A stretch of 20,000 bases of DNA from NCBI RefSeq assembly GCF_004010195.1, contig NC_057717.1:103918177-103938176 (forward strand). The letters are read 5' to 3'. This DNA is from Chiloscyllium plagiosum (taxonomy: Eukaryota). Shown here one piece after another: positions 160 to 20,000 of the stretch. The position numbers and the translations under genes are program-made. A model generated the notes under the pieces. That model ran no database searches. It saw only the letters and a program-made list of their open reading frames with translations, and was not told where the DNA came from. Position 1 is the stretch's first letter. Every line of letters begins with the position of its first letter.

Positions 160-414
160 CATAAGACATAGGAGCAGAAATGAGGCCATTCAATCATGGC
201 TGATACGTTTCTCAACCCTATTCTCCTGCTTTCTCCCTGTAACTCTTGATTCATTTGATATTCAAGAACATATCTATCTCAGTCTTAAACATACTCAATG
301 ACCTGGCCTCCACAGCCTTTTGTGGTGATGATTTCGATAAATTCACCACTCTCTGGCTGAAGACACTTCTCCTTATCTCCATTCTAAAAGGTGTTCCATT
401 TACTCTGAGGCTGT
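160..414 (-). mobile_element. CR1 LINE 3' end remnant
   Basis: Begins cataagacataggagcagaaatgaggccattc and continues aatgacctggcctccacagcc...ttcaccactctctggctgaag, which is homologous to the RT C-terminal part of the CR1 at 6040-6110. Confidence 0.7.
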
Positions 415-503
415 CATGGAACCTGAAACACTAACTTTGATTTCTCTTCACAAATGCTGCCAGACCTGCACAGTTTTTCCAGTGACTTCTGATTTTTCTT
501 TCA
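411..503 (+). mobile_element. Degraded Penelope-like terminal fragment (same family as 11030-11260)
   Basis: gtcatggaacctgaaacactaactttgatttctcttcacaaatgctgccagacctgcacagtttttccag aligns by eye with 11131-11222 (ggtcaccggactcgaaatgtgaatgttgtttctctttccacagatgctaacagacctgcagagtttctccag). Confidence 0.55.
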
Positions 504-891
504 AACAAACGTTGGAGTTTGACTGTATCCAGCAAGCAAACCAAAGGACATTCTTAAGTGTACAAGATTATATTTATATATATTTGAGGCACCAGGAGGG
601 TCCAATGCATTAAAGCCCCACCAATTTATCTTTGGCCACTTTCCTTATGTGGGTGGCTTGCTATCAACTCTTGCTCAATAGCATTTTGCTAAAGCATCTT
701 ACGACTTTAAAGTTGTTACATAAATACAAAAAAAAGTAATTTTATTTTATATCCCAGGAGCGTAGACGTGTGTTTAAATTGATTAAATAATATCAGTTGT
801 ACCCTATGGAGTTCCCGATTGCAGTGGGACTGAAACACACACCTAAATGAATTGCAGGTACCCTGCTCCAGGTGTGCTATCTGGAAGCGCC

Positions 892-1086
892 CTGGGGGTT
901 GTAGTCCGGAGCAGTCCACAGACTACATTTCCCGGCGTGCAAGGGGGAGGAGCTCACTGGGAGTTGTAGGCCGGAGTGTACCTGAGACTACATTTCCCGG
1001 CATGCAAGGGGAAGGTGCCCACTGGGTGTTGTAGGCCTGAGTATCCCGGAGACTACATTTCCCGGCGTGCAACGGGGGCGGCGGTC
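892..1086. repeat. Three tandem diverged 65-bp units
   Basis: The GACTACATTT anchor recurs at exactly 65-bp spacing (921, 986, 1051). Each unit starts CTGGGnGTTGTAG and ends ...CA. Confidence 0.9.
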
Positions 1087-1262
1087 ACGAACGAGCCTGT
1101 GAATGGCTAGTGGTTCGCCTGCGCCAATGGGTGACCGCGGGAGACGCATGCGCGGGACGGGGTGCGTGAAGGGGAGGCGGCGGGCGGGAGTCTTGGAAAC
1201 GGAGCGAGAGGGCGGCCTCGGGTTCAGGCTCAGGCCGGGACCAGGACCTGGGGCTGGGGAGG
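892..1262 (+). promoter_or_regulatory. CpG-rich housekeeping-type promoter with six ZNF143/THAP11 (ACTACAnnTCCC) motifs, GC boxes, a CCAAT box and an NRF1-like site
   Basis: GACTACATTTCCCGGC(G/A)TGC at 921, 986 and 1051. Reverse TGGG(G/A/T)GTTGTAG at 893, 958 and 1023. GGGGGCGG at 1074-1081, CCAAT at 1124-1128, ACGCATGCGC at 1144-1153. CpG density is far higher than in the rest of the window. Confidence 0.85.
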
Positions 1263-1268
1263 GTGAGT
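1180..1268 (+). other. Putative non-coding first exon ending at a consensus splice donor (start approximate)
   Basis: GC-rich stretch downstream of the motif cluster, ending GG|GTGAGT with GT at 1263-1264. No ATG in the stretch; the gene identity cannot be determined. Confidence 0.5.
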
Positions 1269-1287
1269 GACACTACCCACACACACC

Positions 1288-1787
1288 NNNNNNNNNNNNN
1301 NNNNNNNNNNNNNNNNNNNNNNNNNNNNNNNNNNNNNNNNNNNNNNNNNNNNNNNNNNNNNNNNNNNNNNNNNNNNNNNNNNNNNNNNNNNNNNNNNNNN
1401 NNNNNNNNNNNNNNNNNNNNNNNNNNNNNNNNNNNNNNNNNNNNNNNNNNNNNNNNNNNNNNNNNNNNNNNNNNNNNNNNNNNNNNNNNNNNNNNNNNNN
1501 NNNNNNNNNNNNNNNNNNNNNNNNNNNNNNNNNNNNNNNNNNNNNNNNNNNNNNNNNNNNNNNNNNNNNNNNNNNNNNNNNNNNNNNNNNNNNNNNNNNN
1601 NNNNNNNNNNNNNNNNNNNNNNNNNNNNNNNNNNNNNNNNNNNNNNNNNNNNNNNNNNNNNNNNNNNNNNNNNNNNNNNNNNNNNNNNNNNNNNNNNNNN
1701 NNNNNNNNNNNNNNNNNNNNNNNNNNNNNNNNNNNNNNNNNNNNNNNNNNNNNNNNNNNNNNNNNNNNNNNNNNNNNNNNNNNNNNN
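1288..1787. other. Assembly gap (500 N, probably a placeholder size)
   Basis: Exactly 500 N, flanked by a CA-rich stub on the left and a minisatellite on the right. Confidence 0.99.
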
Positions 1788-2031
1788 CATCCATAGGAAC
1801 AGGGGGCACCATCCATAGGAACAGGGGGCACCAGATAGGGGCAGAGGGCACCATCGATAGGGACAGAGGGCACCAGATAGGGACAGAGGGCACCATCGAT
1901 AGGAACAGACGGCACCATCGATAGGAACAGAGGGCACCATCTATAGGAACAGAGGGCACCATCGATAGGAACAGAGGGCACCATCGATAGGAACAGAGGG
2001 CACCATGTATAGGAAGAGAGTGTACCATCTA
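1788..2031. repeat. 22-bp minisatellite (CACCATCGATAGGAACAGAGGG) with two 20-bp variant units, truncated by the gap
   Basis: Period 22 (ATAGGAAC at 1921, 1943, 1965); about 11 visible units, degenerating to the right. Confidence 0.95.
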
Positions 2032-2065
2032 CAAGATACACTGGAGTAACACCCAGGCTCTTCTG

Positions 2066-2300
2066 ACTGTACCTTCCTAAATCTGCAACATCTGACATCT
2101 AAAAGGACAAGGGCCTAAGGTATATAGAACACTCCCACTTACAAGTTCCCCTCTAAGCCACTCTTCATCCTGATGTGTAAATTTATCGCTGTTATTTCAG
2201 TGTTGCTGGGTCAGAATCCTGGAACTGTCTCCCGACCACGATTGTGTTGCACCTACAATAGCAATATGATTAAGTAGCCAAGCAGCACTTCATCAAGGAT
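2066..2300 (+). mobile_element. Old LINE (CR1/L2 group) 3' remnant
   Basis: aagccactcttcatcctgatgtgtaaatttatcgctgttatttcagtgttgctgggtcagaatcctggaac is homologous to 4378-4450 within this window. Confidence 0.6.
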
Positions 2301-2339
2301 GGGTTCCAATTAACAGCGAAGTCATGTTAAGATAAACCT

Positions 2340-2835
2340 AAGTAGTATGAGCAAGAGCAGATCTTTGAGCCTGCTCTGTATTCAAATGTGATTATGTCTG
2401 ATCTTCTCATTCCCCCTTTTACCCGCACTATCCCTCTATCCCTTCATGTTTTAACAATCTCAGCCTTGAACATTGCCTCAATCAAGGACAGGAAATGACA
2501 CCACCACAGGAAATGACATCGTCAACCCAAGGAAACCTAAACACAAATAGAAAGCGGGCCATGCCACCATTCGGAGGCCCAGTGAAGATGTTACCTAGAG
2601 TGGTGACCAAACGTCTGAAAACGAACCTTCCAGCTCAGCGAACAAACCTATATCCAGAACCTCAACCTGAAGTATAAATCTTTTCAAAACTCGCTAATAA
2701 CTTTCTGCAGCTGATCTTTCCCCAGATTCGCCACTCTGAGTGAAGATATTCATCCTCAGTTCAATCCCAAATAGCTATCCCCTCATCCAGCGACCGTGTC
2801 CCTTGGTTCTCGAAACAGCCTTTCTGCAATCTATG
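2340..2835 (-). mobile_element. Old CR1 3' remnant interrupted by the 2485-2697 insertion
   Basis: 2340-2482 and 2698-2835 resemble consecutive parts of the CR1 end at 160-414 (atctcagccttgaaca; agattcgccactctgagtgaaga). Confidence 0.55.
2485..2697 (+). mobile_element. Penelope-like terminal fragment with a degenerate hammerhead motif at 2580-2617
   Basis: CA-GTGAAGA-T-GTTACC-TAGAGT-GGTGAC-CAAA-CG-TC-TG: stem II, the ACGT palindrome and the short stem I are preserved; two core positions are substituted. Confidence 0.55.
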
Positions 2836-2950
2836 AGAGAAATACGGAGTTGCCTGGCCTACTGTGGCAGAGTTTCCACGCTCTGCCCAACAGTGCTTGA
2901 GGAGTATTGAACCCAGGGTTGAAGTGAGGAGATCAGAAGAGGCTGCTTAC

Positions 2951-3115
2951 CTGGCACTTCCACCCCGTACACTGCCACATCAGTCATGTTCAGGAGCTGA
3001 CTCAGGCAGCCCTCCACCTCAGTGGTTGAGACATTCTCCCCTCGCCAGCGGAAAGTGTCGCCGCTCCGGTCCTTGAAATACATGTAGCCGAGCTCGTCCA
3101 TAACCAGCACGTCAC
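2951..3115 (-). CDS. slc27a1: Long-chain fatty acid transport protein, internal exon (165 nt; equivalent to coding exon 10): [55 protein letters not shown]
   Basis: FATP signature (YFxDRxGDTFRWxGENVSTxEVE). Acceptor AG at 3117-3116, donor GTAAGC starting at 2950; phase 1-1. Confidence 0.95.
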
Positions 3116-3689
3116 CTGCAAGCCGCAGACAACGCACAGAGAGAATTACAAGGCACTCCGGAATTACGCCAGAACATCCCACTCAAGAAACACGTTGCTT
3201 CACGTTCAAGTCACTCAGCAGACAAGATCGGAAAATCAAAAAACGAACTTAAGAACTCCTGGGCAGGATTACAGGAACCTAAAAGGCAACAGAGCATAGC
3301 CACTGTCGTGTCAGCAAATGCTTACTGCAAGATCCCACCAACCCGTAAGCCAGGACCTTTGGGTGGCTTCGAACAATGCTCTGGGAGAGTAGGCATTAAG
3401 TTGAAGGTAAGTCAGGGCCAGGGTTCAATGTTTCATTGATACCACATTGGAGCGTCACCGTAACTTCTGCGATTGTGATGCCCTCGAATGAATGAGCTTC
3501 GGACAGAGGGGAGAGTACCACCCACTGAAACAAACAATCTCGTGCAGGATGGCATTTAGCAGGCAATGAAGGCTTTGTCAAGTGTTGCAAGCACTCATGG
3601 GACACATTCCAACCATTTGGGCACAGCAAAAGCTACCATATCTAACAAGGAGATAATGACTACAATCACTTTTAACCAACGTTGGTTAC

Positions 3690-3935
3690 AGGATAAATAT
3701 TGACCTGAACACCAGGGAGGTCACTCCTCACCCAACTCATTCCAAGTGGGACTGCGGGATCTTTCATGTCACTTGAAGTGGGGTGGGCGGGTTGGTGAAT
3801 TAGACCTTGGTTTCACATCTCACCTGAAAGAGAGCACTGTTACAGCAAGGCAGCAGGGGGTTTGTTTGGATTTGGTGCTCACATCTTAAGGATGGAACTT
3901 AGACTTTCTGACTCCGAGGCAAATGTGTCAATGAG
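3690..3935 (-). mobile_element. Degraded DeuSINE-type (SacSINE1/AmnSINE1-like) SINE
   Basis: ggataaatattgacc...gggatctttcatgtcac...ccttggtttcacatctcacctgaaagagagcac...ttctgactccgaggc matches the reverse Deu-core layout as recalled, and is a reverse-complement homologue of 10690-10750. Confidence 0.55.
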
Positions 3936-4027
3936 TTATGGATGAAACGGGTAGCAAGACAGAACATATGTAAAACCTCTGCGCTCACCCTGTGTGCCAT
4001 TAGTTGTATTTTTACCGCAGTTTGTAC

Positions 4028-4165
4028 CTGACAGGTAGGCGCTGTCTCCTTTCTTAAAGACGTTGTATGCAATCTTTTTGCTTGTGGCAGACTCGTTGGC
4101 GTAGCCATCAAACCGGCGAAGGGGGTCCTGCTGGTTAATGCGGCCTACCAACTGCCCCGGCTCAC
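4028..4165 (-). CDS. slc27a1: FATP internal exon (138 nt; exon 9): [46 protein letters not shown]
   Basis: AG at 4167-4166, GT at 4027-4026; phase 1-1. INQQDP and ESATSKKIA are FATP1-like. Confidence 0.95.
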
Positions 4166-4374
4166 CTGGCTCAAGAGAAGGAGAAAAAGGTCAAAGGTTG
4201 GAGAAATTCACTGGAGATTCCACTTAGTGTAGGCCCATGGGCTGGAACTGCCGGGAGCTGGTGAACCAAGACTGACTGAATAAGTGCATTCACACACAGA
4301 GAGGAAGGACTTTTGAGTACCTCTGTCATACCTTTCGGGCTTTTGAGGTGTTCCAAAAGGCACCACAGTCAATT

Positions 4375-4730
4375 GACAAGCCGCACTCCATCCTGACTTG
4401 GGAATATAATTGATGTTCCTTTACTGTCACTGGGTCAAAATCCTGGATCCCTCTTCCTAACAGCTCTGTGGCTGTCCATACACAGGTTTCATCTCTCTCA
4501 GCACCCCCGGCCCACAAGCCCCATTTCTGATGAAGGGCTTATGCCCGAAATGTTGATTCTCTTGCTCCTTGGATGCTGCCTGACCTGCTGTGCTTTTCCA
4601 GCACCACACTCTCGATGGCAGTCCACACACCCCAAGGACTGCACAAAGGCACTGTCCTCTTAAGGGAAATTAAGGAGAGCCAATGAATGCTGGCCCAGCC
4701 AGCAACGCTCTGAATAAATTAGAAAAAAAA
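4375..4730 (+). mobile_element. LINE (CR1/L2 group) 3' end with A-rich tail, interrupted by the 4484-4615 insertion
   Basis: Homologous to 2155-2255; ends caatgaatgctggcccagccagcaacgc...gaataaattagaaaaaaaa. The same tail occurs in reverse at 15512-15580. Confidence 0.65.
4484..4615 (+). mobile_element. 5'-truncated Penelope-like terminal repeat with a hammerhead core and a 15-bp target-site duplication
   Basis: CTGATGA(4527-4533)-A-GGGC-TTAT-GCCC-GAAA(4547-4550)-TG-TT. Flanks TGGCTGTCCATACAC (4469-4483) and TGGCAGTCCACACAC (4616-4630) match at 13/15. Same family as 6952-7080 and 10783-10984. Confidence 0.8.
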
Positions 4731-5131
4731 CACTTTTGGAAATCTAGTCAGATTCTTTCAAGATCCCTTTCTCTCGTTGCACCTGTCAGTATTCTATAAT
4801 TCCTGACGCAGACTGAAGAAGGTGAAACAAGAACATTGTGTCCTAGTTTCAGGGGAAGGTTGGCTGCAACAATGATATCTGGGATACAAACAGGAGACAA
4901 ACACTTCCGATTGCAGAAAACCACCGCACTGATAGCAAAACACCACGGCTTCTTTACACGTGCCTTACGTATCGATCTAAGCAGTGAAAGCCTGCAAGGA
5001 GGTTGGGAGGGGGCCAAAAAATACAAGAAGCCTGGCATTTGCAACAGAGCGATGTGGGATTGGTTTACTTACAAACACTTCCAATTAAGTGCCTTCATAA
5101 TGTAATAAACATCAGGCACAATTCTGCTCAA

Positions 5132-5148
5132 CGCCACTAGATGGTGAC
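5132..5148 (+). promoter_or_regulatory. Candidate CTCF site
   Basis: CGCCACTAGATGGTGAC is close to the CCACYAGRKGGCR core, with one C>T; motif match only. Confidence 0.4.
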
Positions 5149-5167
5149 AACTTCACACAATAGCAGG

Positions 5168-5403
5168 TGAAATACCTCCACAAAGGCCAGTATCCCATCA
5201 CCAAGTCACCCATTATTTACAGGCTCAAAGTGCGTGACACTGACCCAGCTCGCTCAGAGCTGGCACCGAGAGTGAGCAGTACCCCTGGCCCTCCTGTTTA
5301 TATCTGTCAGCCAGGGCTCCCCGATTGGACTCAGGTAACAGCCGCAATCAGGGAACATCATTCCAATCAGTACAGCAGGTACATCGCGCTAGTCTTTCTA
5401 ACA
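5168..5403 (-). mobile_element. Solo LTR (probably Gypsy-type), 236 bp
   Basis: Minus strand runs TGTTAG...TTTCA (TG...CA termini) with CCAAT, GATATAAA and a poly(A)-signal-like AAATAAT in LTR order. No PBS, PPT or clear TSD. Confidence 0.65.
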
Positions 5404-5674
5404 GTTGAGTCCCTGTTTTGAGTTCATCTCAGAAATGGAAAGCGCTCCCACTCTGTTCTGGCCCTCAGAATTCCCAGAAGTGTGAGGTCGGGCAAGCTGA
5501 GTTAGTTTCCATGAAAGCTGCAGGGCCGACCTGAACTGTGTGCTGCTTTTGCAGTGAATGGGGCTGGGTTGGGGGCACTGGTGGCTAATGACCTGGAAAC
5601 ACCAGCACAGACTCATCTAGAAAATCCATCTGGGATGGATTAGCTCTTTGGCAACTGCAAATCCTGATGATTAC

Positions 5675-5801
5675 CTGGTTTGCAGGGGATACACAGCCCA
5701 TTGGGACCTCGGATAAGCTCGAGAGTATCTTCATTAACCTTCAGCAGACGGATAGGATAGACCTGGGGCAAGATGCGGCTGTTAAACCCACAGGCGCCTA
5801 C
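5675..5801 (-). CDS. slc27a1: FATP internal exon (127 nt; exon 8): [42 protein letters not shown]
   Basis: Translated by hand (absent from the ORF track). Polypyrimidine tract plus CAG acceptor at 5803-5802; donor GTAATC starting at 5674; phase 0-1. Confidence 0.95.
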
Positions 5802-5912
5802 CTGTAGAAAAAAACAGAAGAAGAACAGTGATTCTGTACTGAATAACTAACATAAATAAGAGAGCTAAGTGTGCATCTTAGGAGCATATGTGGCCAAACT
5901 GATACCTTAATT

Positions 5913-6951
5913 ACATAGAACAGTACAGCACAGAACAGGCCCTTCAGCCCACGGTGTTGTGCCGATCATTGATCCTCGTATATGCACCCTCAAATATCTG
6001 TGACCATATGCATGTCCAGCAGTCTCTTAAATGTCCCCAATGACCCTGCCTCCACAACTGCTGCTGGCAACGCATTCCATGCTCTCACAACTCTCTGTGT
6101 AAAGAACCCACCTCTGACATCCCCTCTATACTTTCCTCCAACCAGCTTAAAACTATGACCCCTCGTGTTAGTCATTTCTGCCCTGGGAAATAGTCTCTGG
6201 CTATCGACTCTATCTATGCCTCTCATTACCTTGTATACCTCAATTAGGTCCCCTCTCCTCCTCCTTTTCTCCAATGAAAAAAGTCCGAGCTCAGTCAACC
6301 TCTCTTCATAAGATAAGCCCTCCAGTCCAGGCAGCATCCTGGTAAACCTCTTCTGAACCCTCTCCAAAGCATCCACATCTTTCCTATAATAGGGCGACCA
6401 GAACTGGACGCGGTATTCCAAGTGCGGTCTAACCAAAGTTTTATAAAGCTCCAACAAGATCTCACGACTCTTAAACTCAACCTCCTGTTAATGAAAGCCA
6501 AAACACCATATGCTTTCTTTACAAACCTGTCCACTTGGGTGGCTATTTTAAGGGATCTATGTACCTGCACACCAAGATCCCTCTGTTCCTCCACACTGCC
6601 AAGAATCCTACTCTCAGCCCATCTCTGCATCCTGTCAATGTCCTGCTGCAGCCTACAACAGCCCTCTATACGGTCACCGACACCTCCAACCTTTGTGTCG
6701 TCTGCAAACTTGCTGACCCATCGTCCAATCCCCTCATCCAAGTCATTAATAAAATTACAAACAGTAGAGGCCCAAGGACAGAGCCCTGTGGAACATCACT
6801 CACCACTGACTTCCAGACAGAATATTTTCCTTCTACTACCACTCGCTGTCTTCTGTTGGCCAGCCAATTCTGTATCCAGACAGCTAAGTTCCCCTGTATC
6901 CCATTCCTCCTGACCTTCTAAATGAGCCTACCATGGGGAACCTTATCAAAT
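5913..6951 (-). mobile_element. 5'-truncated CR1 LINE, RT C-terminal region with a frameshift and an internal deletion
   Basis: ORF-track peptides SKFADDTK and LYKTLVRPHLEYRVQFWSP...LERVQKRFTRMLPGL...FFTQRVVRAWNALP. 3' tail at 5913; internal deletion near 6610. Confidence 0.95.
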
Positions 6952-7080
6952 GGAAAAATGAGGACTGCAGATGCTGGAGGGCAGAGTCGAGAGTGTGGTG
7001 CTGGAAAAGCACAGCAGGGTCAGGCAGCATCCGAGGAGCAGGAGAATCGACGTTTCAGGCAGGAGCCCTTCTTTAGGAAT
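6952..7080 (-). mobile_element. Penelope-like terminal repeat including the tail, with a degenerate hammerhead at 7044-7080
   Basis: Minus strand ATTC-CTAAAGA-A-GGGC-TCCT-GCCT-GAAA-CG-TC-GATT; reverse-complement homologue of 4523-4615. Confidence 0.8.
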
Positions 7081-7230
7081 CCTTAATTGCAATGGCAATC
7101 CCTATCCCAAAATGGTCAGTGGAATCTTTCTTCTCAAGTCATTCCTAATGCCCATTCTCTCATTCACTGCCGACCCCCAAAATAAACATCCCATTGGGGA
7201 GCCTGGGTTAGTTCCAGAGTGAGTACCCAC

Positions 7231-7440
7231 CTTGCCGTCCAGGTTGGCGATGGCACAGTTGCACTCAGTTGCCCCATAGAACTCTGCCATCTGCTTGATG
7301 CGGAAGCGACTGGTGAAGGACTCCCAGACCGAGGGTCTCAGGCCGTTACCAATCGCCATACGGATGTGGTGCTGGCTTTCAGCCAGGCGGACCGGTTGGT
7401 TGAGGAGATACCGGCAAATCTCGCCAATGTACTGGACGAT
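7231..7440 (-). CDS. slc27a1: FATP internal exon (210 nt; exon 7): [16 protein letters not shown]...GNGLRPSVW...[19 protein letters not shown]
   Basis: EFYGATE adenylate-forming motif. AG at 7442-7441, GT at 7230-7229; phase 0-0. Confidence 0.95.
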
Positions 7441-7477
7441 CTGAAGAGCAACGGTCACATATTAACATCCAAGCAGA

Positions 7478-8781
7478 GAAGTGGTGTGCAGGTTGTTGGA
7501 GGGGATTCTGACAGATAACATTTACATGCATTTGGAAAAGCAAGGACTGATTAGGGATAGTCAACATGGGGCTTTGTGGGTGGGAAATCATCTCTCAAAT
7601 TTGATTGAGTTGTTTGGTGTGGTAACAAAGAGGATTGATGTGGGCAGAGTGGTGGACATCTCTATATGGTCTTAGGGAGGCGTTGGACAAGCTTATTTAT
7701 GGTAGACTGGTTAACAAGGTTACATCACATGGAATACAGGGAGAACGAGCCATTTGGATGCAACATTGGCTTGAAGGCAGGAGACAGAGGGTGGTGGTGG
7801 ACAGGGGTTTTCACACTGGAGCCCTGTAACCAGTAGTATTTGTCATTTATATAAATGATTTGGATGTGAACATAGGAGGTATAGTTAGTAAATTTGCAGA
7901 CGACACTTACATTGGAGCTTTAGTGGACAGTACACAACGGGACCTTGATCAGATGGGCCAATGGACCGAGAACTGGCAGGTGGACTTTAATTTAGATAAA
8001 TGTGGGGTGCTGCATTTTGGAAAGGCAAATCAGGGCAGGCTGTATACATTTAATGGTAAGGTCCTGGGGAATGTTGCTGAACAAAAACACCTTGGAGTGC
8101 AGGTTCATAGCTCCTTGAAAGTAGGACAGGACAGTGAAGAAAGTGTTTGTGTGCTTGCCTCTATTGTTCAGTGCTTTGAGTACAGGAGTTGGGATGTCAG
8201 ATTGCAGCTATACAGGACATTGGTTAAAACACTTTCGGAATACTGCATGCAATTCTGGTCTCTCTGTTGTAGGGAAGTTGTTGTGAAACTTGAAAGGGTT
8301 CAGAAAAGATTTCCAAGGATGTTGCCAGGGTTGGAGGGTTTGAGCTACAGGGAGAGGCTGAACAGGCTGGGGCTGTTTTCCCTGGAGCATTGGAGGCTGA
8401 GGGGTGATGTTATAGAGGTTTATAAAATCATGAGGGGCATGGATAGCGTAAATGGACAAGGTCTTTTCTCCAAGGTGGGAGGAATCTAAAACTAGAGGAC
8501 GCAAATATAAGGTGAGAGGAGAAAGATTTAAAAAGAGAACTGAAGGGCAACTTTTTCACGTAGAGAGTGGTGTGTGTGTGTGGAAAGAGCTGCCAGAGGA
8601 AGTGGTGGAGGCTGATACAATTACAACATCTGGATGGGGACATGAACAGGAAGAGTTTAGAGGGATATGGGCCAAATACTGGCAAATCAGACTAGATAAA
8701 TTTAGGATATCTGGTTGGCACGGATGAGTTGGCTCGAAGGATTTGTTTTTGTGCTATCCGCCTCTATAACTCTACGACTAA
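7478..8781 (+). mobile_element. 5'-truncated, degraded CR1 LINE (RT domain to 3' tail)
   Basis: Peptides LIRDSQHG, WLEGRRQRVVV, SKFADDT and LERVQKRFPRMLPGL; ends in a ctctataactctacgact tail. Confidence 0.95.
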
Positions 8782-9158
8782 GTGGCTGTGGTCTGGAATG
8801 AACCGCCTATGAGTGGTGTGCAGGCAGGTACAATTAATTTTCTTTGGAAAACCTCAAATGGTCATTTGAAAGGAACAAGGAGGATTATGGGGAGAAGGTG
8901 GGAGAATAGCTCTAGATGAGGTGTTCATTCAGAGAGCCAGCGCAGACGCAATGGGTTGAACGGCCTCCTTCTATATTGCAACACTTCTGCCATTGAGAGA
9001 TATTCAAGGCTGACATTTTGTAAGCATTAACGGAGTCAAGAAACATGGGGATTGGGCAAGTAAAGTGGAGTGGAGTGGAAAGGAAATAGAGCATCCTCCA
9101 CCTTATTCAATGGTCATAGGCTTGAAGGCCTGAATGGCCTACTGCGGGCTGTATTTTT
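8782..9158 (+). mobile_element. Two further old CR1 3'-end remnants in tandem
   Basis: atgggttgaacggcctccttct near 8950-8972 and gaaggcctgaatggcctact near 9124-9143 are CR1-type 3' UTR motifs. Confidence 0.6.
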
Positions 9159-9306
9159 TCTCACACAATCCTGCTCCTGAGCACTTTCAGTGCAAACGGG
9201 CAGGCAGCCAGGCCAATGTGGGTGAGGGGGAGATGTGGGTGCTGAGCTGGAAGCGAACAGAAACCCCGAGTGTGCACAGCACAGAGAGAGGCTTGTAAAC
9301 ACTCAC

Positions 9307-9416
9307 TGTGCAGTTGTACTTCACGCAGTCATCCCAGAATCGACTCGCCGAGAACTTCTTTTTGATCACAACAGTCAGGCCGTGCAGGACGCACTGTCCC
9401 ACACCAACTATGTTGC
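9307..9416 (-). CDS. slc27a1: FATP internal exon (110 nt; exon 6): [37 protein letters not shown]
   Basis: [11 protein letters not shown] motif. AG at 9418-9417; donor GTGAGT starting at 9306; phase 1-0. Confidence 0.95.
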
Positions 9417-9714
9417 CTGTTGACAGAATGGGGACACATCCTTTCAAAAACACACTCTCGCTTGCACTGAAAACTCAGTAACAGGTTGACACAGGGAAGC
9501 CTGCGGATCACGAGTGAGTGTAATCTCCAAGGCACAACATGCTTGTTTGATAAGAAGTCCAATGAGCAAGTTTTTTTCTTTTATATTGTCAATAGTTCTT
9601 ATCCCTGAAACCATAAACCCTCACTTGTGTGACCCCACACTCAGCCAGCCTTACAACCCTCCGCGGACCCGCACTCCTCAGATTATGGTCTCCCCGTTGT
9701 TTCAATATTAGTGG

Positions 9715-9918
9715 TCCCCCTCAGTTTCCAAGCTCCTAAATGCTGTGGAATTTCCCCCACAAACTTCTCCACCTCACCTTTCCTTAACATCCTCTCTGAC
9801 CTCTATTTTGGGCAGCTGTTGTTACAACACACAGGGCTTGGTGTTTGAGAATGCTCCAGTGACGTGTCTGGGACATTTTAACTACATTAAAGATGCTTTG
9901 TCAATGAAAGCTATTGTT
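9715..9918 (+). mobile_element. Old L2-like LINE 3' remnant
   Basis: Ends gtgacgtgtctgggacattttaactacattaaagatgctttgtcaatgaaagctattgtt, resembling the L2/DeuSINE-type tail as recalled. Confidence 0.45.
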
Positions 9919-10629
9919 CATTCATATAGGCCCCATGTTTTGCTATCCATTCCAGTTGGTTGTAACTGTAAGTAAATTATTTTCATGCTGGCTTTTTAAG
10001 TATGCCTCTGCCTCATAACAATTTTAATTAAAAATAGGCATTGCAAGACAATTGCACAGACGCCCAGATTCTGGATGAACAGAGTTTAAGAGTGCACCGC
10101 CTTCTGCTTTTATTTCAGTTTACAGATTCAGAGACATGTCTACTCCCAAAATGCAAGGAATTCCGAGCATGTGAGGTGTAATTACACTCAAGGCATAAAC
10201 AGATGAGGAAAGAGTTCACGGACTGAAAACTTTATTAGCTGCAACGTAGCACCTACCCTTGTTGCAACGTTTAATGGATTGTGAGGGATCTCTCGTGTGA
10301 TAATATTTCACATTGGAAGGAGGGAGACTCCAGGGAGACAAAGCTGTAATTTGGGGGAGTTAAGCATTTCACTGTAATGAACAGCACCCAGCTATATACT
10401 TGGCGAATTTACTTCAAACCCCTCCAAGATTGAAATGATTATGCAAAAGCTAAATAATATGCGAGAATTCTGAAATAAAGCAAGGCAGAATCCAAGAGAT
10501 TCTTCTGGTCTGTCCTACTAGCTGGGATATTTCAGAAGAAACACGGAACAATTTAATGCATAGGAGACTGTTCACCATTTCCATTCATTACTCTCCCACA
10601 TCACTCAGTAACATGAGCTTCCAGCCCAG

Positions 10630-10760
10630 CCTGAGCTTGAACCCCAAACCAGAGACACGAGTGATAAGGTAGGCAGCGCTCCAGTCCAGTGCTGAAGGAA
10701 TGACGCAGTGTTGGAGGTACCATCCGTTCGATGAGATGTTAAACTGAGCTCAATCCACTG
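10630..10760 (+). mobile_element. DeuSINE-type core fragment
   Basis: cagtgctgaaggaatgacgcagtgttggaggtaccatccgttcgatgagatgttaaactgag resembles the Deu-domain core. Confidence 0.55.
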
Positions 10761-10782
10761 CAACCTGACACAAGTGAGAAAC

Positions 10783-10984
10783 TGGGAGACACTGAGGTCT
10801 GCAGACGTTGGAGATCAGAGTTGAGAGTGTGCTGCTGGAAAAGCACAGCAGGTCAAGCAGCATCCGAGGAGCAGGAGAATCGACATCTCGGGCCAGAACC
10901 CTTTCCTGATGAAGGGGTCTGGTCTGATCTCCTGCTCCTCGGATGCTGCCTGACCTGCTGTGCTTTGCCAGCAACACACTCTCA
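10783..10984. mobile_element. Palindromic Penelope-derived mini-element with a perfect 13-bp TSD
   Basis: Arms at about 10820-10903 and 10906-10986 are inverted repeats; CTGATGA at 10906-10912; unpaired tail 10783-10819. ACAAGTGAGAAAC occurs at both 10770-10782 and 10985-10997. Confidence 0.85.
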
Positions 10985-11029
10985 ACAAGTGAGAAACCGT
11001 ATGGATGCGAAGCAATAATGAAGAAAAGG

Positions 11030-11260
11030 AACAAAGACAGAAATTGCTGGAGAAACTCAGCAGGTCTGGCACCATCTGTGCAGGGAAAGCAGAGTTACTG
11101 TTCGGGTCGAGCGACCCTTCATCAGAACCGGGTCACCGGACTCGAAATGTGAATGTTGTTTCTCTTTCCACAGATGCTAACAGACCTGCAGAGTTTCTCC
11201 AGCAAATTCTGTTTTTGTTTCCGATTTCCAGCATCTGCAGTTCTTTGATTTTAATCTTAA
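11030..11260. mobile_element. Palindromic Penelope-derived mini-element, second family
   Basis: Arms at about 11030-11125 and 11130-11220. Minus-strand CTGATGA(11125-11119)-A-GGGTC-GCTC-GACCC-GAAC. Unpaired tail about 11221-11256. Possible decayed TSD 11013-11029 vs 11261-11277 (12/17). Confidence 0.8.
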
Positions 11261-11576
11261 CAATAACAAATAGAACGTGTTCTCCTATCGTTAGAGTGAC
11301 TTTCTCAGAGCGGAACCTTCCACTTGGGTCAGTCAAGCTGAGAATCTGATGTGGGAATAGGGAGATGGAAGGCAATGATGTCCAGACACCAAAAGAATGG
11401 TGGACTGGGGCATGCACGTCGAGTCATCGAGCTGTACAGCATGGAAGCAGATCCATTGATCCAACTCATCCAGGCTGACCAGGTATTTGCTGCGCCACCT
11501 CATACCATAACTATCACATGAATACCACCAAATGGTCAGCACTCTGATAAGCAGGAATGATATCATGACTTCTTAC

Positions 11577-11668
11577 CTGCTGAATGATACAGGGGCAGAC
11601 AGTCATAAATAATGTCATCATGCTTCATTCGGAATCCATAATAAGCAAACACAGCCATCCTGTAGTAC
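11577..11668 (-). CDS. slc27a1: FATP internal exon (92 nt; exon 5): [31 protein letters not shown]
   Basis: LPLYHS motif. AG at 11670-11669; donor GTAAGA starting at 11576; phase 2-1. Confidence 0.95.
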
Positions 11669-12081
11669 CTACAAGCAAGCACACCCGCTGATGAGTAGGA
11701 TGGAGGGGAAAAAGCAGGGCTTTGTATCTTACAGAGCAAGCAGGTCAACTAACTGAGGTGAGAAATCCCCATCCAAGCTCTGCTGCATTGGGTCATCCTT
11801 CGTGTTGCTGGGTGCTAAAACCCAAGACAAAGATTCAACTTAACGTCTTGGTGAATAACGACTTTCCCATTGTTGAGGTGCACCAAATGATAGAGCACAA
11901 AAAAAGGGCCGTTTTGTCACTTCTGAAAGAGCTGTCAAATCTCACTCCCCCTCCCCCAGACCCCACCCACTTCAGGATTCATCCGATTCGCTTGCACAGA
12001 TGCTGCTGACTTTGTTTCTCAAGCATCGTATTTGGATCGTAATCCACCAAAAAAATACTTTTGCTGTCTCCCCTCTTGTTA

Positions 12082-12267
<186 letters not shown>

Positions 12268-12607
12268 TCAGGTGCAGCATGTTTATACAGCAACGTGCTT
12301 CTCATCTTCCAATTGTCACACAATTCCAGCTATATGTCAAGCACAGACCCCACAATGGAATGATGAACACAAGAAACATAATTGCCCCTTATCTCATAGG
12401 TCCCAGCTCTTAACTGTTATACAGAGAAATACAGAGAGTTTGAGCTGCAGTGGCTAACCACTCCAACAACGGTACAAGGTCAAAAAACACTGAGCAATCA
12501 GTGAACATTGGCCCAAACATCTACGATTTCCATAACTATAAAACGCTAACGGTTTTCACTGTTTATATAATTAAACGCTGCATTTGATTATCTCTTACCT
12601 TCAGAAT

Positions 12608-14383
12608 TAACAGCAGGGTACAGGAGGTAAAGGATATTGTATCAATAACAGCAGGGTACAGGAGGTAAAGGATGGTGTATCAGTAACAGCAGGGTACAGG
12701 AGGTAAAGGATGGTGTATCGATAACAGCAGGGAACAGGAGGTAAAGAACGGTGTATCAGTAACAGCAGGGTACAGGTGGTAAAGGAGGCTGTATCGATAA
12801 CAGCAGGGTACAGGAGGTAAACGAGGCTGTATCGATAACAGCAGGGTACAGGAAGTAAAGGAGGCTGTATCAGTAACAGCAGGGTACAGGAGGTAAAGGA
12901 TGGTGTATCGATAACAGCAGGGTACAGGTGGTAAAGGAGGCTGCATCGATAACAGCAGGGTACAGGAGGTAAAGGATGGTGTATCAGTAACAGCAGGGTA
13001 CAGGAGGTAAAGGATGGTGTATCGATAACAGCAGGGTACAATGGGTAAAGGATCGTGTATCAGTAACAGCAGGGTACAGGAGGTAAAGGATGGTGTATCA
13101 GTAAGAGCAGGGTACAATAGGTAAAGGATGGTGTATCAGTAATAGCAGGGTACAGGAGGTAAAGGAGGCTGCATCGATAACAGCAGGGTACAGGAGGTAA
13201 AGGATGGTGTATCAATAACAGCAGGGTACAGGAGGTAAAGGAGGCTGTATCAGTAACAGGAGGTAAAGGAGGCTGTATTGAAAACAGCAGAGTACAGGAG
13301 GTAAAGGATGGTGTATTGATAACAGCAGGGTACAGGAGGTAAAGGAGGCTGTATTGATAACAGCCGGGCACAGGAGGGAAAGGATGGTGTATCGATAACA
13401 GCAGGGTACATGAGGTAAAGGAGGATGTTTTGATAACAGCAGAGTACAGGAGGTAAAGGATGGTGTATTGATAACAGCAGGGTACAGGAGGTAAAGGATG
13501 GTGTATCAGTAACAGCAGGATACAGGAGGTAAAGGATGGTGTATCTGTCACAGCAGGGTACAGGAGGTAAAGGATGGTGTATCGATAGCAGCAGAGTACA
13601 GGAGGTAAAGGATAGTGTATCAGTAACAGCAGGGTACAGGAGGGTTAGGACGGTGTATCAGGAACAGCAGGGTACAGGAGGTAAAAGATTGTGTATCGAT
13701 AACAGCAGGGTACAGGAGGTAAAGGAGGCTGTATCGATAACAGCAGGGTACAGGAGGTAAAGGATTGTGTATCGATAACAGCAGGGTACAGGAGGTAAAG
13801 GAGGCTGTATCGATAACAGCAGGGTACAGGAGGTAAAGGATGGTGTATCAGTAACAGCAGGGTACAAGAGGTCAAGGAGGCTGTATCGATAACAGCAGGG
13901 TGCAGGAGGTAAAGGATGGTGTATCGATAACAGCAGGGTACAGGAGGTAAAGGATGGTGTATCAGTAACAGCAGGGTTACAATAGGTAAAGGATGGTGTA
14001 TCGATAACGGCAGGGTACAGGAGGTAAAGGATGGTGTATCAGTAACAGCAGGGTATACGAGGTAAAGGATGGTGTATCAGTAACAGCAGGGGACAGGAGG
14101 TAAAGGATATTGTATCAATAACAGCAGAGTACACGAGGTAAATGATGGTGTATCAGTAACAGCAGGGTACAGGAGGTAAAGGATGGTGTATCAGTAACAG
14201 CAGGGTACAGGAGGTAAAGGATGCTGTATCGATAACGGCAGGGTACAGGAGGTAAAGGATGGTGTATCGATAACAGCAGGGTACAGGAGGTACAGGAGGC
14301 AGTATCAATAACAGCAGAGTACACGAGGTTAAGGATGGTGTATCAGTAACAGCAGGGTACAGGAGGTAAAGAATGTTGTATCA
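12608..14383. repeat. 38-bp minisatellite, about 47 units: AACAGCAGGGTACAGGAGGTAAAGGA(TGG/GGC)TGTATC(GA/AG)T
   Basis: Period 38 (CAGCAGGGTA at 12611, 12649, 12687). No unique spacers; one shortened unit near 13255. Confidence 0.99.
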
Positions 14384-15099
14384 TGAACCAGGTGATACTT
14401 GCCCAGTGTCATTTGCAAGGAAAGTGAAAGAAGACAGATTTCCCTGACAACCAGACACATGGCCATTCGCAGTCATGTATGCATCAAACGTACAACCCCT
14501 TACACTGCTTCCTCTAATAGGAATTAACCCTCGGTCATAGCAGCCCATTAGCCAGCGTTGTTCACATGCTTATCTCATACAGTGGGGAGGAAACATACTG
14601 TCAGAGCACCAAGGATAGATGGCTGGTCTAAAATACAAGGCCTCAGAGACTGACAATTCACCCCGGGATTGGAAATTAAGAAACAATGTGTGTCACGGGG
14701 CAGTTGTTGGAAGTTCAGCCCAGTGTCCCTACTGTTTGAGAGCAGCTTGTCAGGGTTTTGGCAATCAAGCAAACCTGTGTTCGAGACAGCCCAGCCTTTT
14801 CGGTTACACTGGCTGGAAAGGACAGAACCAGTTGCAACAAGCAGCTAGAAATGAAAAGCTCACTGTACATATATAAGCTCTCGAAGATGGAAATCTAATC
14901 TGGTGACTACAGAAGTCACTACTGAAACATTAATGGAATGGAATTGAATGAATACACTACAGTGGTCCAAAGGCAGCTCACCTTAAGAGTAATTAAGGAG
15001 GGATAGCCAACCAGTGAAGCCCACATCCCAGGAGGGAAAGTTTTTAAAAATCAACTGGTCAACAGTAGGGCTGATGTTTACAGTAGAATAAGTACTCTG

Positions 15100-15292
15100 A
15101 TTTTAATTCTGGGTCAGTTCTTTGCTACAATCCAAACCGAATCCCACTGCTCTGTCTATGCTCAATAGTCCTGTATGTTCCTCTGTTTTTAAATATTTAC
15201 CTAACTTTCTCTTTTTAGATCCATCAGTCACTGACCTCAACCCCTCCCTGCAAGCCAAACCCATATTCCCAACAGTCCTCAGTGAAATGAAA
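15100..15292 (-). mobile_element. Old CR1 3' remnant
   Basis: aatcccactgctctg...aaatatttacctaac...cctcaacccctccctgcaagcc...attcccaacagtcctcagtgaaa follows the reverse CR1 end layout seen at 160-414. Confidence 0.45.
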
Positions 15293-15511
15293 TTAATTAA
15301 TTGCAATTAATTGTATTCACTAATCTTTTGGCTACAATTCTAGCGTGACATCTCCTGGACAGCCACTGCTGAACGAAAGAAAACAGTCCTTCGCCATTCA
15401 TCTTGTTAAAATTCGTCATCATTTAAAAACAAACTCAATTAAAACTTCACTTACATTCCTCTGCATATAATCCCAACATCTCAATCCTTGCCCAACAACT
15501 CAAGTTCCACT

Positions 15512-15688
15512 TCTTTTTATTCACTTATGGTCGGTGATGTCACTGGCTGAGCCCAGCATTTATTTACCCATCCCTAATTCCCAGAGGGCAGTTAAGAGCC
15601 TACCACGTTGCTGTGGGTCTGGAGTCACATGTAGGCCCGACCAGGTAAGGATGGCTGTTTTCCTTCCCTAAAGGATATTAGTCAGCCT
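15512..15688 (-). mobile_element. 3' part of a tRNA-derived SINE with a LINE-like tail
   Basis: 15596-15688 is a close homologue of 16092-16186. 15512-15580 is the reverse of the LINE tail at 4660-4730. Confidence 0.75.
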
Positions 15689-16087
15689 TAACATTAGGAC
15701 ATCCTAAGCATTAGCCTAGCGGAGGAGATGGAAATTCCAAACTCTTCCCCCCACCCTGTCAAAAGGTTCTTGGGAAGGGGGTGACAACCGAAGATTTCAA
15801 AACTCGGATTTACAAATTTGGTACCGAGGGAATAAAGGTGGTCCGACGATGTCAAATGTCCAGTCTCGGCAGGGAAGGCCAAACAGCTTTCCAATTCTAG
15901 GAAACCAACGCCAGCCCTAAAACGTGGGCAGCTTCTGACCAATTAGGGAACAAATGGCGCTTGAATTTCAAAGAAATCCTGCTCACAGCTGAGCAGAACA
16001 TGCAGGCATTAAATTTCAGGCTCACACTCATTCCACAGCTGCTGGGATTAGACCTGGAAGTTTATTTTAAACCAGCATGAAGGCATC

Positions 16088-16347
16088 ACTGAGAATCAAC
16101 CACATTGCTGTGGGTCTGGGGTCACATGTCGGCCAGGCCAGGTAAGGACGGCAGATTCCTTCCCCAAAGGACATTAAATGAGCCAGATGAGTTGTTTCAA
16201 CAATCAATAATGAACCTGTGGTCTTCATTAGATTTTTAATTCCGGATTTTTATTGGAGTCAATCTGCCGTGGTGGGATTTGAACCAGAACATTGCGTGGG
16301 CCCCTGAATTAACAGTCCTGTGATAATACCACTAGGCCACTGCCTCC
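16088..16347 (-). mobile_element. 5' part of a tRNA-derived SINE (same family as 15512-15688)
   Basis: Minus strand starts GGAGGCAGTGGCCTAGTGG. Pol III box A TGGCCTAGTGG at 16339-16329, box B GGTTCAAATCC at 16285-16275. Confidence 0.8.
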
Positions 16348-17121
16348 ATATTGTATTCCTGTTTGAGTTTTGTCTTGTCTGGTTTCTCCGTGTGACGATT
16401 ATGATGTTTGGTGATCAGAATCACGTGAAAGGTCAGTAAGAAAAACACACACTCAAATAAAAAATCATCTGCCAACAAGAATCTTGTCGCAATTTCAGAA
16501 GAGTGGCTATTTTTAAATCAGCTGACATCTGGTGTGTGATAAACGACGAGAAAACTTCCCAACTCTGCCTTGACATATTAGCTTTGGCTCAGTTTGATGA
16601 TCACAGCATGAGCAAGTCACCGTCACAACCCCTGCAAGCCACCTTAGCTCAATCAAGACAGTGTCTGTAACTGAAACGGTTACTGGCAGCGCACTGCAGC
16701 CATACTCTGTGCACTTTTCCACTTATTAAATACAAAAGGCAACAGCTGAATGGCATGAACTGAAATCAGTTAGATGCACATCAACTAATGCAGTCTCTGG
16801 TGCGGCTTTTCATTTACAAAATAAAAATGAACAATCTGACAGGGCACAGGAGTCCCATATTAATCTCCATTGTATCAGATTCACCTCTTGCAAAAAAAAC
16901 CGTCCAAGCGTTAAAGCCACAATGCTCAAGATGTGTAATTTTATTTCAAGAACATTAATTTTTTAAAAATCTAAAAGACTTCACTAATAGAATGAAACCT
17001 GTTCTACTGCAAAGAGGGAAGCATAATCCATCTTTTGTACCGTGTCGGAAACGTTGCATCACTCGGGCCTTGGAGTGGCTGCTGGAACCCCTACTGGAAT
17101 GCACTGCTTTCACTGACAGTG

Positions 17122-17320
17122 ATGTGGAGGTGTCAGCGTTGGACTGGGGTGGACAAAGTTAAAAATCACAGGACACCAAACAGGTTTATTTGGAAGCACT
17201 AGCTCTCAGAGCGCTGCTCCTTCGTCAAGTAGCTCCCTGATGAAGGAGCGGCGCTCCGAAAGCTAGTGCTTCCAAATAAACCTGTTGGACTATAACCTGG
17301 TGCAGTGTGATTTTTAACTT
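17122..17320. mobile_element. Palindromic Penelope-derived mini-element, third family, with an intact hammerhead core and a TSD
   Basis: Arms at about 17156-17228 and 17237-17320; tail 17122-17155. CTGATGA-A-GGAGC-GGC-GCTCC-GAAA-GC-TA at 17237-17265. TTCACTGACAGTG (17109-17121) vs TTCAATGACAGTG (17319-17331), 12/13. Confidence 0.85.
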
Positions 17321-17470
17321 CAATGACAGTGGAAGGTCATGTTCAACCTTCACAGAGGCAAGTAGATCGATATTTGAAAGGCAGAAATATGCCCGGCTAG
17401 GAATGGAGGAGTGGGATGAATCAGAAAGTGCAAGCCCGTTAGGTTGAATGGCCTGTACTCTATGATTCTA
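17321..17470 (+). mobile_element. Old CR1 3' remnant
   Basis: tagatcgatatttgaaaggcagaaatatg...aggttgaatggcctgtactctatgattcta, similar to 8860-8985. Confidence 0.5.
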
Positions 17471-18890: not shown

Positions 18891-19793
18891 TAAAGTGAGG
18901 CAGAAACCAGGCAGATGGGAGCAACGGTTGCTCTCCAACACAGGGAAAAATCCTTGTCATCAGGTGTGAGGTCCTCTCAGTGTTGTTATATGTGGTACAG
19001 GTCTGGCCTACTCCCCGAACCTGCACTGCTGCAGTCACCCGGGACATCTTCCATTTTACGTGGAGATCAAAGATGAACCATGTCCAAAGGGAAACACTGT
19101 ACACAGAACTAGCAAAAGTGGGGAGAAAAAACACCACCCAATGCCACCGTCACCCTGATGGCCACCTTTGTGTGTGGCTGCATCAAGCTGTGCATGGAAC
19201 CCACGGTACATAAACACTAAGTGTCACTAGTACTGAAGTTCTATCTTTCCCCGATAGTGCAAAGGATGGGCCTGGTCTCGTTGCCATGGAACGTGCCAAG
19301 TAGTTGGACTGTTCCTTATCAATTGTCCCTTGTGGAGAAATTTGTGAAGAAAAAGCCCTTTGACCACACCATCACACCCACTCCAGGTACTGGCTCCGAC
19401 CCCACTCCCAGCTCTACACCCGTTGCCATGGAACGTGCCAAGTAGTTGGACTGTTCCTTATCAATTGTCCCTTGTGGAGAAATTTGTGAAGAAAAACCCC
19501 TTTGACCACAAGTCCATCAGGAAGTGGTCAGCATGGAGTGTCCTTGAGACCCTTCGGGAAAAGGAGAGGGCGGATCCTGTCGAGTGGTTCCCTGGGCAGA
19601 CTGTCAAAGCCATTTGGCAGAATGCCTCATCGCCAGAACTTTCTAACATGTACCAAGACATGGCTTGGCTGGTGGTGAGAAGGGCTCTGCCTGTGAGATC
19701 CTTTATGCACGCCCGGACTCTCAGCTGCACCGCACGCTGCCCTGAAGCGGCTGCGGGGGGGACAAGACTGTCACACACCTCCTTCTGGAATGC
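18891..19793 (+). mobile_element. Tx1/L1-clade LINE ORF2 C-terminal remnant (post-RT region and zf-RVT-like zinc knuckle), frameshifted
   Basis: Peptides KVRQK.GRWEQR.LS..GK, LVIRCEVLSVLLYV.QVWP, IFHFTWRSKM, IWQNASSPELSN..QD.AWLVVRRALPVR and ARCP...TVTHLLLEC, read across frameshifts. Confidence 0.85.
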
Positions 19794-20000
19794 GCCCCCA
19801 TTCCCCCCACCATCACACCCACTCCAGGTACTGGCTCCGACCCCACTCCCAGCTCTACACCCCCACCAGCTCCCAGCCCTGCCGAGTTTTCACCATCCCC
19901 CCAGACCTCCCCCTCACTGAGGATGAACGATCAGTCCTCAGCAAAGGACTCACCTTTGTCCCCCTCCGTCCACGCACCAATGAATTTAATACACGCCGTG
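19794..20000 (+). mobile_element. Penelope-like element coding region (N-terminal to the RT core), running off the window
   Basis: The frame from 19862 translates PTSSQPCRVFTIPPDLPLTEDERSVLSKGLTFVPLRPRTNEFNTRR with no stop. LxxxExxVLxKGLxFxP is the conserved N-terminal motif of PLE reverse transcriptases. Confidence 0.75.

Follow-up and report, generated by a model that had tools for sequence, protein, structure and literature searches.

Short repeats in the Chiloscyllium plagiosum genome as probable non-coding derivatives of Penelope-like elements with minimal hammerhead motifs

A 20,000-nucleotide (nt) stretch of the Chiloscyllium plagiosum genome (contig NC_057717.1, positions 103,918,177 to 103,938,176), referred to here as the window, contains seven insertions of short repeats. 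We consider it likely that the seven are small units without coding sequence, derived from the terminal module of Penelope-like elements (PLEs), mobilised in trans, and carrying a hammerhead ribozyme motif inherited from the parent element. The motif itself, inverted truncated twins, one-sided tails, target duplications of unequal length and high copy all support this PLE-terminal interpretation, which a preliminary description of the window had put forward from the DNA letters alone.

Repeat insertions and lineages

Repeat finding in the window, together with blastn of each unit against it, recovered all seven insertions of the preliminary description at or near the starts given there. The starts at 10783 and 17122 were exact, each lying immediately 3′ of a flanking direct repeat. 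The repeat search returned the direct pairs 4533-4613/10823-10903, 4523-4585/7018-7080 and 427-496/11033-11102, as well as the internal inverted arms listed below, and the insertions amount to one per 2.8 kb of non-N sequence. All seven are thus real, but it had been missed that three of them are foldbacks, that is, inverted pairs of units. The description had also counted four sequence families, here A to D. Because A and B are similar in blastn within the window (76% over 55 nt, E 3e-6; 84% over 32 nt), these two share an ancestor, leaving three independent lineages (A/B, C and D). In the same searches against the window, C and D showed no similarity beyond themselves. The insertions and their parts are as follows.

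4520..4615, plus strand: A1, family A half-unit with the motif, then the conserved arm and a short 3′ end without tail (descriptor scan, blastn)
4527-4533, plus strand: A1 core, followed by the extra A (4534), stem II (4535-4538/4543-4546) and GAA (4547-4549)
4550-4553, plus strand: A1 tetramer ATGT, with N17 at 4554
6952..7086, minus strand: A2, family A half-unit with tail and decayed hammerhead (repeat search)
7076-7070, minus strand: CUAAAGA of the decayed A2 motif, followed by stem II (7068-7065/7060-7057) and GAA (7056-7054)
7053-7050, minus strand: A2 tetramer ACGT, with C17 at 7049
10783..10984, no strand assigned: A foldback of two inverted 5′-truncated units, arms 10820-10878 and 10928-10986, 95% complementary
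10906-10912, plus strand: single CUGAUGA box at the apex of the A foldback
10783-10821: tail of the A foldback, 39 nt
11030..11246, no strand assigned: B foldback, arms 11030-11080 and 11169-11219, 88%
11125-11119, minus strand: core of the B1 hammerhead in the B foldback, with the extra A at 11118
11117-11113/11108-11104, minus strand: B1 stem II, followed by GAA (11103-11101)
11220-11246: tail of the B foldback, 27 nt
411..505, plus strand: B3, family B remnant with core traces CUGAGGC ... GAAACAC, then arm (repeat search, blastn)
17122..17323, no strand assigned: C foldback, inner arms 17179-17232 and 17233-17286, zero spacer
17237-17243, plus strand: core of the intact C1 hammerhead, followed by the extra A (17244) and stem II (17245-17249/17253-17257)
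17258-17260, plus strand: C1 GAA, followed by AGCU (17261-17264) and A17 (17265)
17228, minus strand: start of the second, decayed hammerhead copy of the C foldback
17122-17152: tail of the C foldback, 31 nt
2485..2665, plus strand: D insertion, with a hammerhead-like stretch at 2582-2615
2582-2615, plus strand: GUGAAGA, U, 6-bp stem II, CAA, ACGU and C, with two core mismatches

Minimal hammerhead motif

The preliminary description had assigned to the better-preserved copies one layout, in which a CUGANGA box, one extra nucleotide, stem II and GAAA follow each other. We found this layout at 4527-4554 (plus strand), 17237-17265 (plus strand) and 11125-11096 (minus strand), whereas the remaining seven of the ten half-units are degraded, with one or two core changes or one box missing. 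A loose descriptor (CUGANGA, 0-2 nt, a stem of at least 4 bp, a loop of 3-8 nt, and GAA) gave three matches in the window, at 4527 (plus), 17237 (plus) and 11125 (minus). In 1000 dinucleotide-preserving shuffles the mean was 0.105 matches; at least one match was present in 102 shuffles and three matches in none. A stringent descriptor was defined by exactly one extra nucleotide, G10.1/C11.1, GAA, A-NN-U with NN pairing, and H17; the features that it adds are absent from the wording of the preliminary description and are listed for PLE minimal hammerheads in PMC4209133. It matched at 4527 and 17237 in the window, and twice in total across 3000 shuffles.

The full core (C3-U4-G5-A6-N7-G8-A9, G12-A13-A14, A15.1-U16.1 and H17) is present at 4527-4554 and 17237-17265. 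At 11125 on the minus strand, B1 lacks A15.1 only; position 15.1 is C and the tetramer site reads CAGU. The stem II pairs that had been quoted for the families (GGGC/GCCC, GGGUC/GACCC, GGAGC/GCUCC and GUUACC/GGUGAC) were all found, and the copy at 411 indeed holds mere traces of the motif. The unpaired nucleotide after A9 is A in families A, B and C and U in family D, and all four have the G10.1-C11.1 pair. As for the palindromic tetramers named earlier, ACGT lies at 2611-2614, AGCT at 17261-17264 and ATGT at 4550-4553, but the one placed at 7049-7052 occupies 7050-7053. In RNA letters the tetramers are ACGU in A2 and D, AGCU in C, and AUGU in A1, the last containing a G-U wobble and lying one transition away from the ACGU of A2.

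Comparison between lineages showed that CUGAUGAA and GAA are identical letter for letter in A and B, whose helix II differs by one inserted U-A pair (GGGC/GCCC versus GGGUC/GACCC), a compensatory change, although the sequences are too few to test covariation formally. None of the four loop letters is shared, and helix I is changed on both strands. Family C carries the same core and family D a near-match, although their helix II sequences and flanks are unrelated to those of A and B. This pattern between lineages would be expected if the source elements once needed the motif.

Architecture of the insertions

Three of the seven insertions (A, B and C) are foldbacks of two inverted units whose outer ends are the 3′ ends of the units. 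The single half-units A1, A2 and B3 have kept the outer end and lost the remainder, like 5′-truncated retrocopies. No head-to-tail tandem of any unit was found in the window, where all insertions are single units or inverted pairs. The A foldback is flanked by a 13-bp direct repeat (10770-10782 and 10985-10997) and the C foldback by an 8-bp direct repeat (17114-17121 and 17324-17331). Because these direct target repeats bracket the whole foldback, each duplication-flanked foldback was inserted as one event.

The arms of the foldbacks are unequal, with a one-sided extension of 39 nt in A, 27 nt in B and 31 nt in C, and each time it is the half lacking an intact CUGAUGA box that has the longer arm. 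In the right half of the A foldback, GAAA-ACGUC-GAU is deleted. The distance from N17 is 58-66 nt to the short end and 89-100 nt to the long end. The starts of units, like the junctions of foldbacks, are concentrated 0-8 nt upstream of C3 and not at the cleavage site. In family C, GGAGC is able to pair either upstream, in an apex hairpin, or downstream, in helix II.

The units are non-coding, with stop codons 8-17 codons after the AUG within CUGAUGA, and these early stops led us to reject a coding capacity. A tRNA-headed short interspersed nuclear element (SINE) was likewise rejected: ARAGORN, which detects near-intact tRNA structure only, found no tRNA gene and no tRNA-like head in the window. 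The A and B foldbacks lie only 45 bp apart (window 10984-11030). Their closeness may be due to chance or to a preference for adjoining insertion of the kind reported for PLEs.

Copy abundance

The preliminary description had called these families high-copy, and very high summed word depth in two species bears this out. Summed word depth, obtained here from about 440,000 contig pieces per DNA run, is not a copy number, and the stretch measured covers families A, B and D. With unique DNA at about 12, summed depth reached 3.0e5 in the D bin (2400-2696), 1.5-3.4e6 in the A bins and 5.8e5 in the B bin, and values were alike in run X1 from the same species and run X10 from a relative. Around A1, unique contigs of run X1 end at 4443 and restart at 4589. 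Family B contigs from other copies stop at 11030/11037 and at 11246, with A/T-rich sequence beyond. For family A, contig joints connect an antisense half (ending at 7056-7061) to a sense half (starting at 4523-4527), which indicates that foldbacks are common in this family. A raw single-cell RNA run, X22, yielded 0 reads on this stretch and so bears neither way on self-cleavage.

Exact-pattern scans of public viral, metagenome and genome contig collections for these repeats gave no matches. In the full text of the literature we found no paper containing six 20-mers from families A and C; the whale shark repeat library in the supplement of PMC8455134 may contain these families under another label.

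Affinity to Penelope-like elements

The minimal hammerheads described for PLEs have a nucleotide separating position 9 from position 10.1, a G10.1-C11.1 pair, a palindromic 15.2-16.2 segment and a short helix I, and a genome has several consensus families of them (Cervera & de la Pena 2014, PMC4209133). The motifs in the window have in common with them the CUGANGA and GAAA boxes, the unpaired nucleotide, G10.1-C11.1, the palindromic tetramer (ACGU or AGCU) where a helix III hairpin is absent, and a putative short helix I. They also share the occurrence of several families, mostly with dispersed single motifs and with some dual motifs on opposite strands (PMC4209133). Helix II is 4-6 bp long here and 7-8 bp in Schistosoma (PMC4209133), and helix I goes down to about 1 bp in family C. 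Abundance is apparently far above the 4,000-9,000 motifs given for coelacanth and Xenopus (PMC4209133), a comparison that rests on summed depth and not on copy number. The abstract, results and discussion of that paper do not name cartilaginous fishes.

The insertions themselves also resemble those of PLEs. According to Craig et al. 2021 (PMC8557442), PLEs are strongly 5′-truncated, are adjoined by an inverted 5′-truncated copy and have a tail of 30-40 bp that is often one-ended. In the anole PLE Poseidon PAc, the hammerhead lies at the junction of the pseudo-long terminal repeat (pLTR) and the open reading frame (ORF), with the cut site 26 nt into the ORF; reverse transcription begins 111-118 nt into the ORF, about 85-92 nt past the cut site (PMC11167929). 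That study takes the tail to be what lies between two points where reverse transcription starts; it also reports cutting and extension of both DNA strands, normal insertion of hammerhead mutants, and a need for protein in cleavage (PMC11167929). An inverted truncated twin and a one-ended extension (27-39 nt here) are common to the insertions in the window and to these PLE insertions (PMC8557442, PMC11167929), and the A/T-rich flanks of other copies of the families add to the likeness. Some 60-100 nt separate the hammerhead from the 3′ end of the units, a distance of similar order to that in the anole PLE (PMC11167929). By contrast with full PLE insertions, the units have neither an ORF nor a long pLTR, and the direct copy is itself cut to about 100 nt and begins right at the hammerhead. 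Because there is no ORF inside them, the units are non-autonomous derivatives or extreme 5′ truncations, and we file them as PLE-derived and non-autonomous, not as PLEs proper.

Two pieces of PLE coding sequence lie near the end of the window.

19847-19999, plus strand: N-terminal part of a PLE ORF, cut by the window end (protein search; not joined to families A-D)
19368-19421: second small PLE ORF fragment

Over 44 residues, the frame at 19868-19999 shares 93% identity with a shark protein that contains an RVT_1 domain, and the closest named protein matches of this retroelement ORF at the window end are from sharks and a ray. A relative of 919 residues, P0004, contains RVT_1 and GIY-YIG domains, and a DKG motif, typical of PLEs (PMC8557442), was seen in the relatives of the ORF. 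Because the ORF piece matches these RVT_1 and GIY-YIG relatives, PLEs exist in this lineage and could provide the units with a partner. A tblastn search of five PLE proteins against the window gave no significant match to families A-D, and the ORF at 19697-19999 gave no usable match in the ESM Atlas. A 90-bp stretch is present twice, at 19279-19368 and 19421-19510 (99% identical), flanking the fragment at 19368-19421. This fragment is itself repeated at 19797-19862, ahead of the PLE ORF piece, and the C-terminal part of an ORF resembling that of a long interspersed nuclear element (LINE) lies between its two copies. The segment 19279-19862 is a nested or rearranged insertion.

Together, these comparisons lead us to propose a mechanism for the origin of the units. 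A unit starts 0-8 nt upstream of a minimal hammerhead made up of CUGAUGA, one unpaired nucleotide and a helix II of 4-6 bp closed by G10.1-C11.1. Next come GAAA and a self-complementary tetramer that takes the place of helix III, then an arm, well conserved and about 60 nt long, and a fixed 3′ end, which has either a short form or a long form with 27-39 extra nt (the tail). The reverse transcriptase/GIY-YIG endonuclease of a PLE would copy such units in trans, recognising the arm and starting reverse transcription at either of two internal sites, which could give the two types of end. Foldbacks with target duplications may come from priming of both DNA strands or from an inverted truncated twin, and such a twin would arise where the second strand is primed. 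The hammerhead would be a passenger that stems from the junction between pLTR and ORF in the parent PLE. It could cleave only slowly in multimeric source transcripts, acting as a dimer formed through the palindromic tetramer, and probably with the help of protein. As the hammerhead would not be needed for insertion, it would decay faster than the arm.

Assessment of the interpretation

Several observations weigh against deriving these units from hammerhead-bearing PLE termini. All 11 specified core letters (CUGA-GA, GAAA) are kept in two of the ten half-units (A1 and C1). By inspection, the putative helix I measures 1-4 bp. In B there are 4 bp when N17 is moved on by one position, to agree with the alignment of the remaining B copies; in A, 2 bp are followed by a mismatch and 1-3 bp; D shows 2 bp and C about 1 bp, so that the helix is weakest in the best copy, C. 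When up to two core mismatches were allowed, the window gave 12 matches, 6 inside the elements (at 2582, 4527 and 17237 on the plus strand and at 17228, 11125 and 7076 on the minus strand) and 6 elsewhere, the latter all carrying two mismatches. Family D had been described as another hammerhead bearer. With GUGAAGA ... CAA it has the same number of core mismatches as the six matches outside the elements, so that it does not rise above background and is not significant on its own. The 6-bp helix II, the ACGU tetramer and C17 hint at a hammerhead without proving it. The Rfam hammerhead models (types I, II, III, HH9 and HH10) gave no match at E<=10 in the whole window or in 81-nt slices at the three motifs; low scores on these models are what we would expect for a motif that lacks the helix III hairpin. 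In addition, the motif is buried in the hairpins that foldback RNAs are predicted to form, at -100 to -144 kcal/mol (minimum free energy of the A foldback, -144), the window holds no ORF with reverse transcriptase and GIY-YIG domains in or next to families A-D, and a well-supported variant of family A (depth 2916, run X1) joins 7048 to 4571, with arms direct and without the core.

The pattern of conservation belongs with these points. Among copies of family A, the hammerhead segment (31 columns) is 42-77% identical and the arm (58 columns) 91-95%, and the C halves behave likewise, with 24 of 29 letters identical in the hammerhead segment and all of the first 22 arm letters identical. The ribozyme is therefore the less conserved part, and the family A pattern speaks against the view that purifying selection maintains the ribozyme of these families. 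Three CpG sites in the hammerhead segment explain some of its divergence, and instability at the centre of the palindrome may account for more. Judged by their sequence, most hammerhead copies here are dead.

The same contrast in conservation bears on an alternative in which the units are active and retrozyme-like, with an essential hammerhead that cuts multimeric transcripts into units; ligation of these would give small circular RNAs, to be reverse transcribed by PLE enzymes. Animal circular-RNA retrozymes with type I hammerheads have been described (PMC7229834), a 2026 preprint connects retrozymes with PLE pLTRs and reports one cartilaginous fish among their hosts (10.64898/2026.07.22.740005), and the motif is intact in two to three copies here. 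Retrozymes of the non-long-terminal-repeat kind resemble the units in being non-autonomous, non-coding, hammerhead-bearing and PLE-related (PMC7229834; 10.64898/2026.07.22.740005), but they are defined by head-to-tail tandems, whereas none of the seven insertions in the window is tandem and all are single or inverted. Essential cleavage also sits poorly with an arm that is better conserved than the hammerhead segment, with units that begin just upstream of C3 instead of at the cleavage site, and with the anole PLE, whose hammerhead mutants show normal insertion and for which reads ending at the cut site are absent (PMC11167929). We regard active retrozymes as unlikely. Quite unlikely, in our view, is an origin as foldback DNA transposons of the miniature inverted-repeat (MITE-like) type or as SINEs unrelated to PLEs, with the hammerhead letters a chance or convergent by-product of the hairpin apex. 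Long near-perfect inverted arms, flanking direct repeats, very stable hairpins, sub-threshold matches to microRNA-precursor models and the lack of an Rfam hammerhead match would all suit such elements. The arms in the window, however, differ in length by 27-39 nt and the target duplications in size (13 versus 8 bp), half copies keep the outer end only, as 5′-truncated retrocopies do, and ARAGORN found no tRNA head. Moreover, an 11-letter core with equal spacing recurs in otherwise dissimilar lineages far above chance.

The hairpins could also be small-RNA genes, that is, microRNA or small interfering RNA precursors selected for that function, and Rfam did return MIR845_1 with 44.5 bits at 17184-17281 and mir-1791 with 44.3 bits at 10845-10962. 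These scores are far under the gathering scores of 81 and 75 and reflect long perfect stems only, and very high-copy, decaying and truncated sequences are unlike conserved single genes. With sub-threshold Rfam scores, we rejected microRNA genes, and small-RNA genes in general seem to us very improbable. The derivation from PLE termini thus remains the reading that we favour.

Genomic context

According to the ORF list, minus-strand exon-like ORFs of an AMP-binding, fatty-acid-transport-like gene are scattered across the window.

2859-3182, minus strand: exon-like frame, AMP-binding/fatty-acid-transport-type gene (ORF)
3936-4190, minus strand: exon-like frame of the same gene (ORF)
7102-7461, minus strand: exon-like frame of the same gene (ORF; PF00501)
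9187-9474, minus strand: exon-like frame of the same gene (ORF)

None of these ORFs overlaps any of the seven repeat insertions, which sit in introns of this shark-like gene. A contig of run X15, which is only guessed to be RNA and whose depth over the repeats is no sign of transcription or cleavage, spans 7229-7440 with zero differences. At 886-1080, a 65-bp unit occurs three times in a G+C-rich and CpG-rich stretch that looks like the promoter island of a plus-strand gene.

Other repeats are present as well. A long intronic tandem array of a 38-bp unit occupies 12495-14380 (46 registered copies, about 85-91% identity), and at 1289-2058 a tandem array of a 20/22-bp unit comes after a gap of 500 N. 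One LINE family is represented by two decayed fragments in opposite orientation, at 5990-6917 (minus strand) and 7500-8730 (plus strand), with weak RVT_1 matches; their summed depth, up to 4.6e6, is among the highest in the stretch measured. A further interspersed repeat has two copies that are 81% identical (15595-15671 and 16092-16168), and other short repeats near 2200-2250, 4400-4478 and 11800 have a common motif.

Discussion

PLE-related non-autonomous hammerhead repeats in vertebrates, including one chondrichthyan genome, have been published (10.64898/2026.07.22.740005). Element and ribozyme are thus each of a type already in print, as is the tie of this ribozyme to PLEs (PMC4209133), and the families in the window add members. 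These families carry the link between PLEs and minimal hammerheads further, to short repeats that are very abundant in a cartilaginous fish and that repeat annotation might class as SINE or unknown. They also provide marks by which such repeats can be annotated: a hammerhead at the 5′ end, a conserved arm, 3′ ends of two alternative kinds, and inverted twins flanked by target duplications. That conservation is far higher in the arm than in the ribozyme suggests that the arm is what the enzyme recognises, and this order of conservation agrees with the dispensability of the hammerhead for PLE insertion in vitro.

It is possible, although we hold it rather doubtful, that elasmobranchs contain a distinct class of PLE-parasitic mini-elements with copies on the order of 1e5-1e6, in standard form a foldback of two inverted 3′ modules with one CUGAUGA at the apex and a one-armed tail. 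If so, this class would comprise the most abundant hammerhead-bearing repeats known in any vertebrate. Its foldbacks would record, in vivo, the priming on two strands so far seen only in vitro for the anole PLE, and the hairpin could work as a switch that masks the ribozyme.

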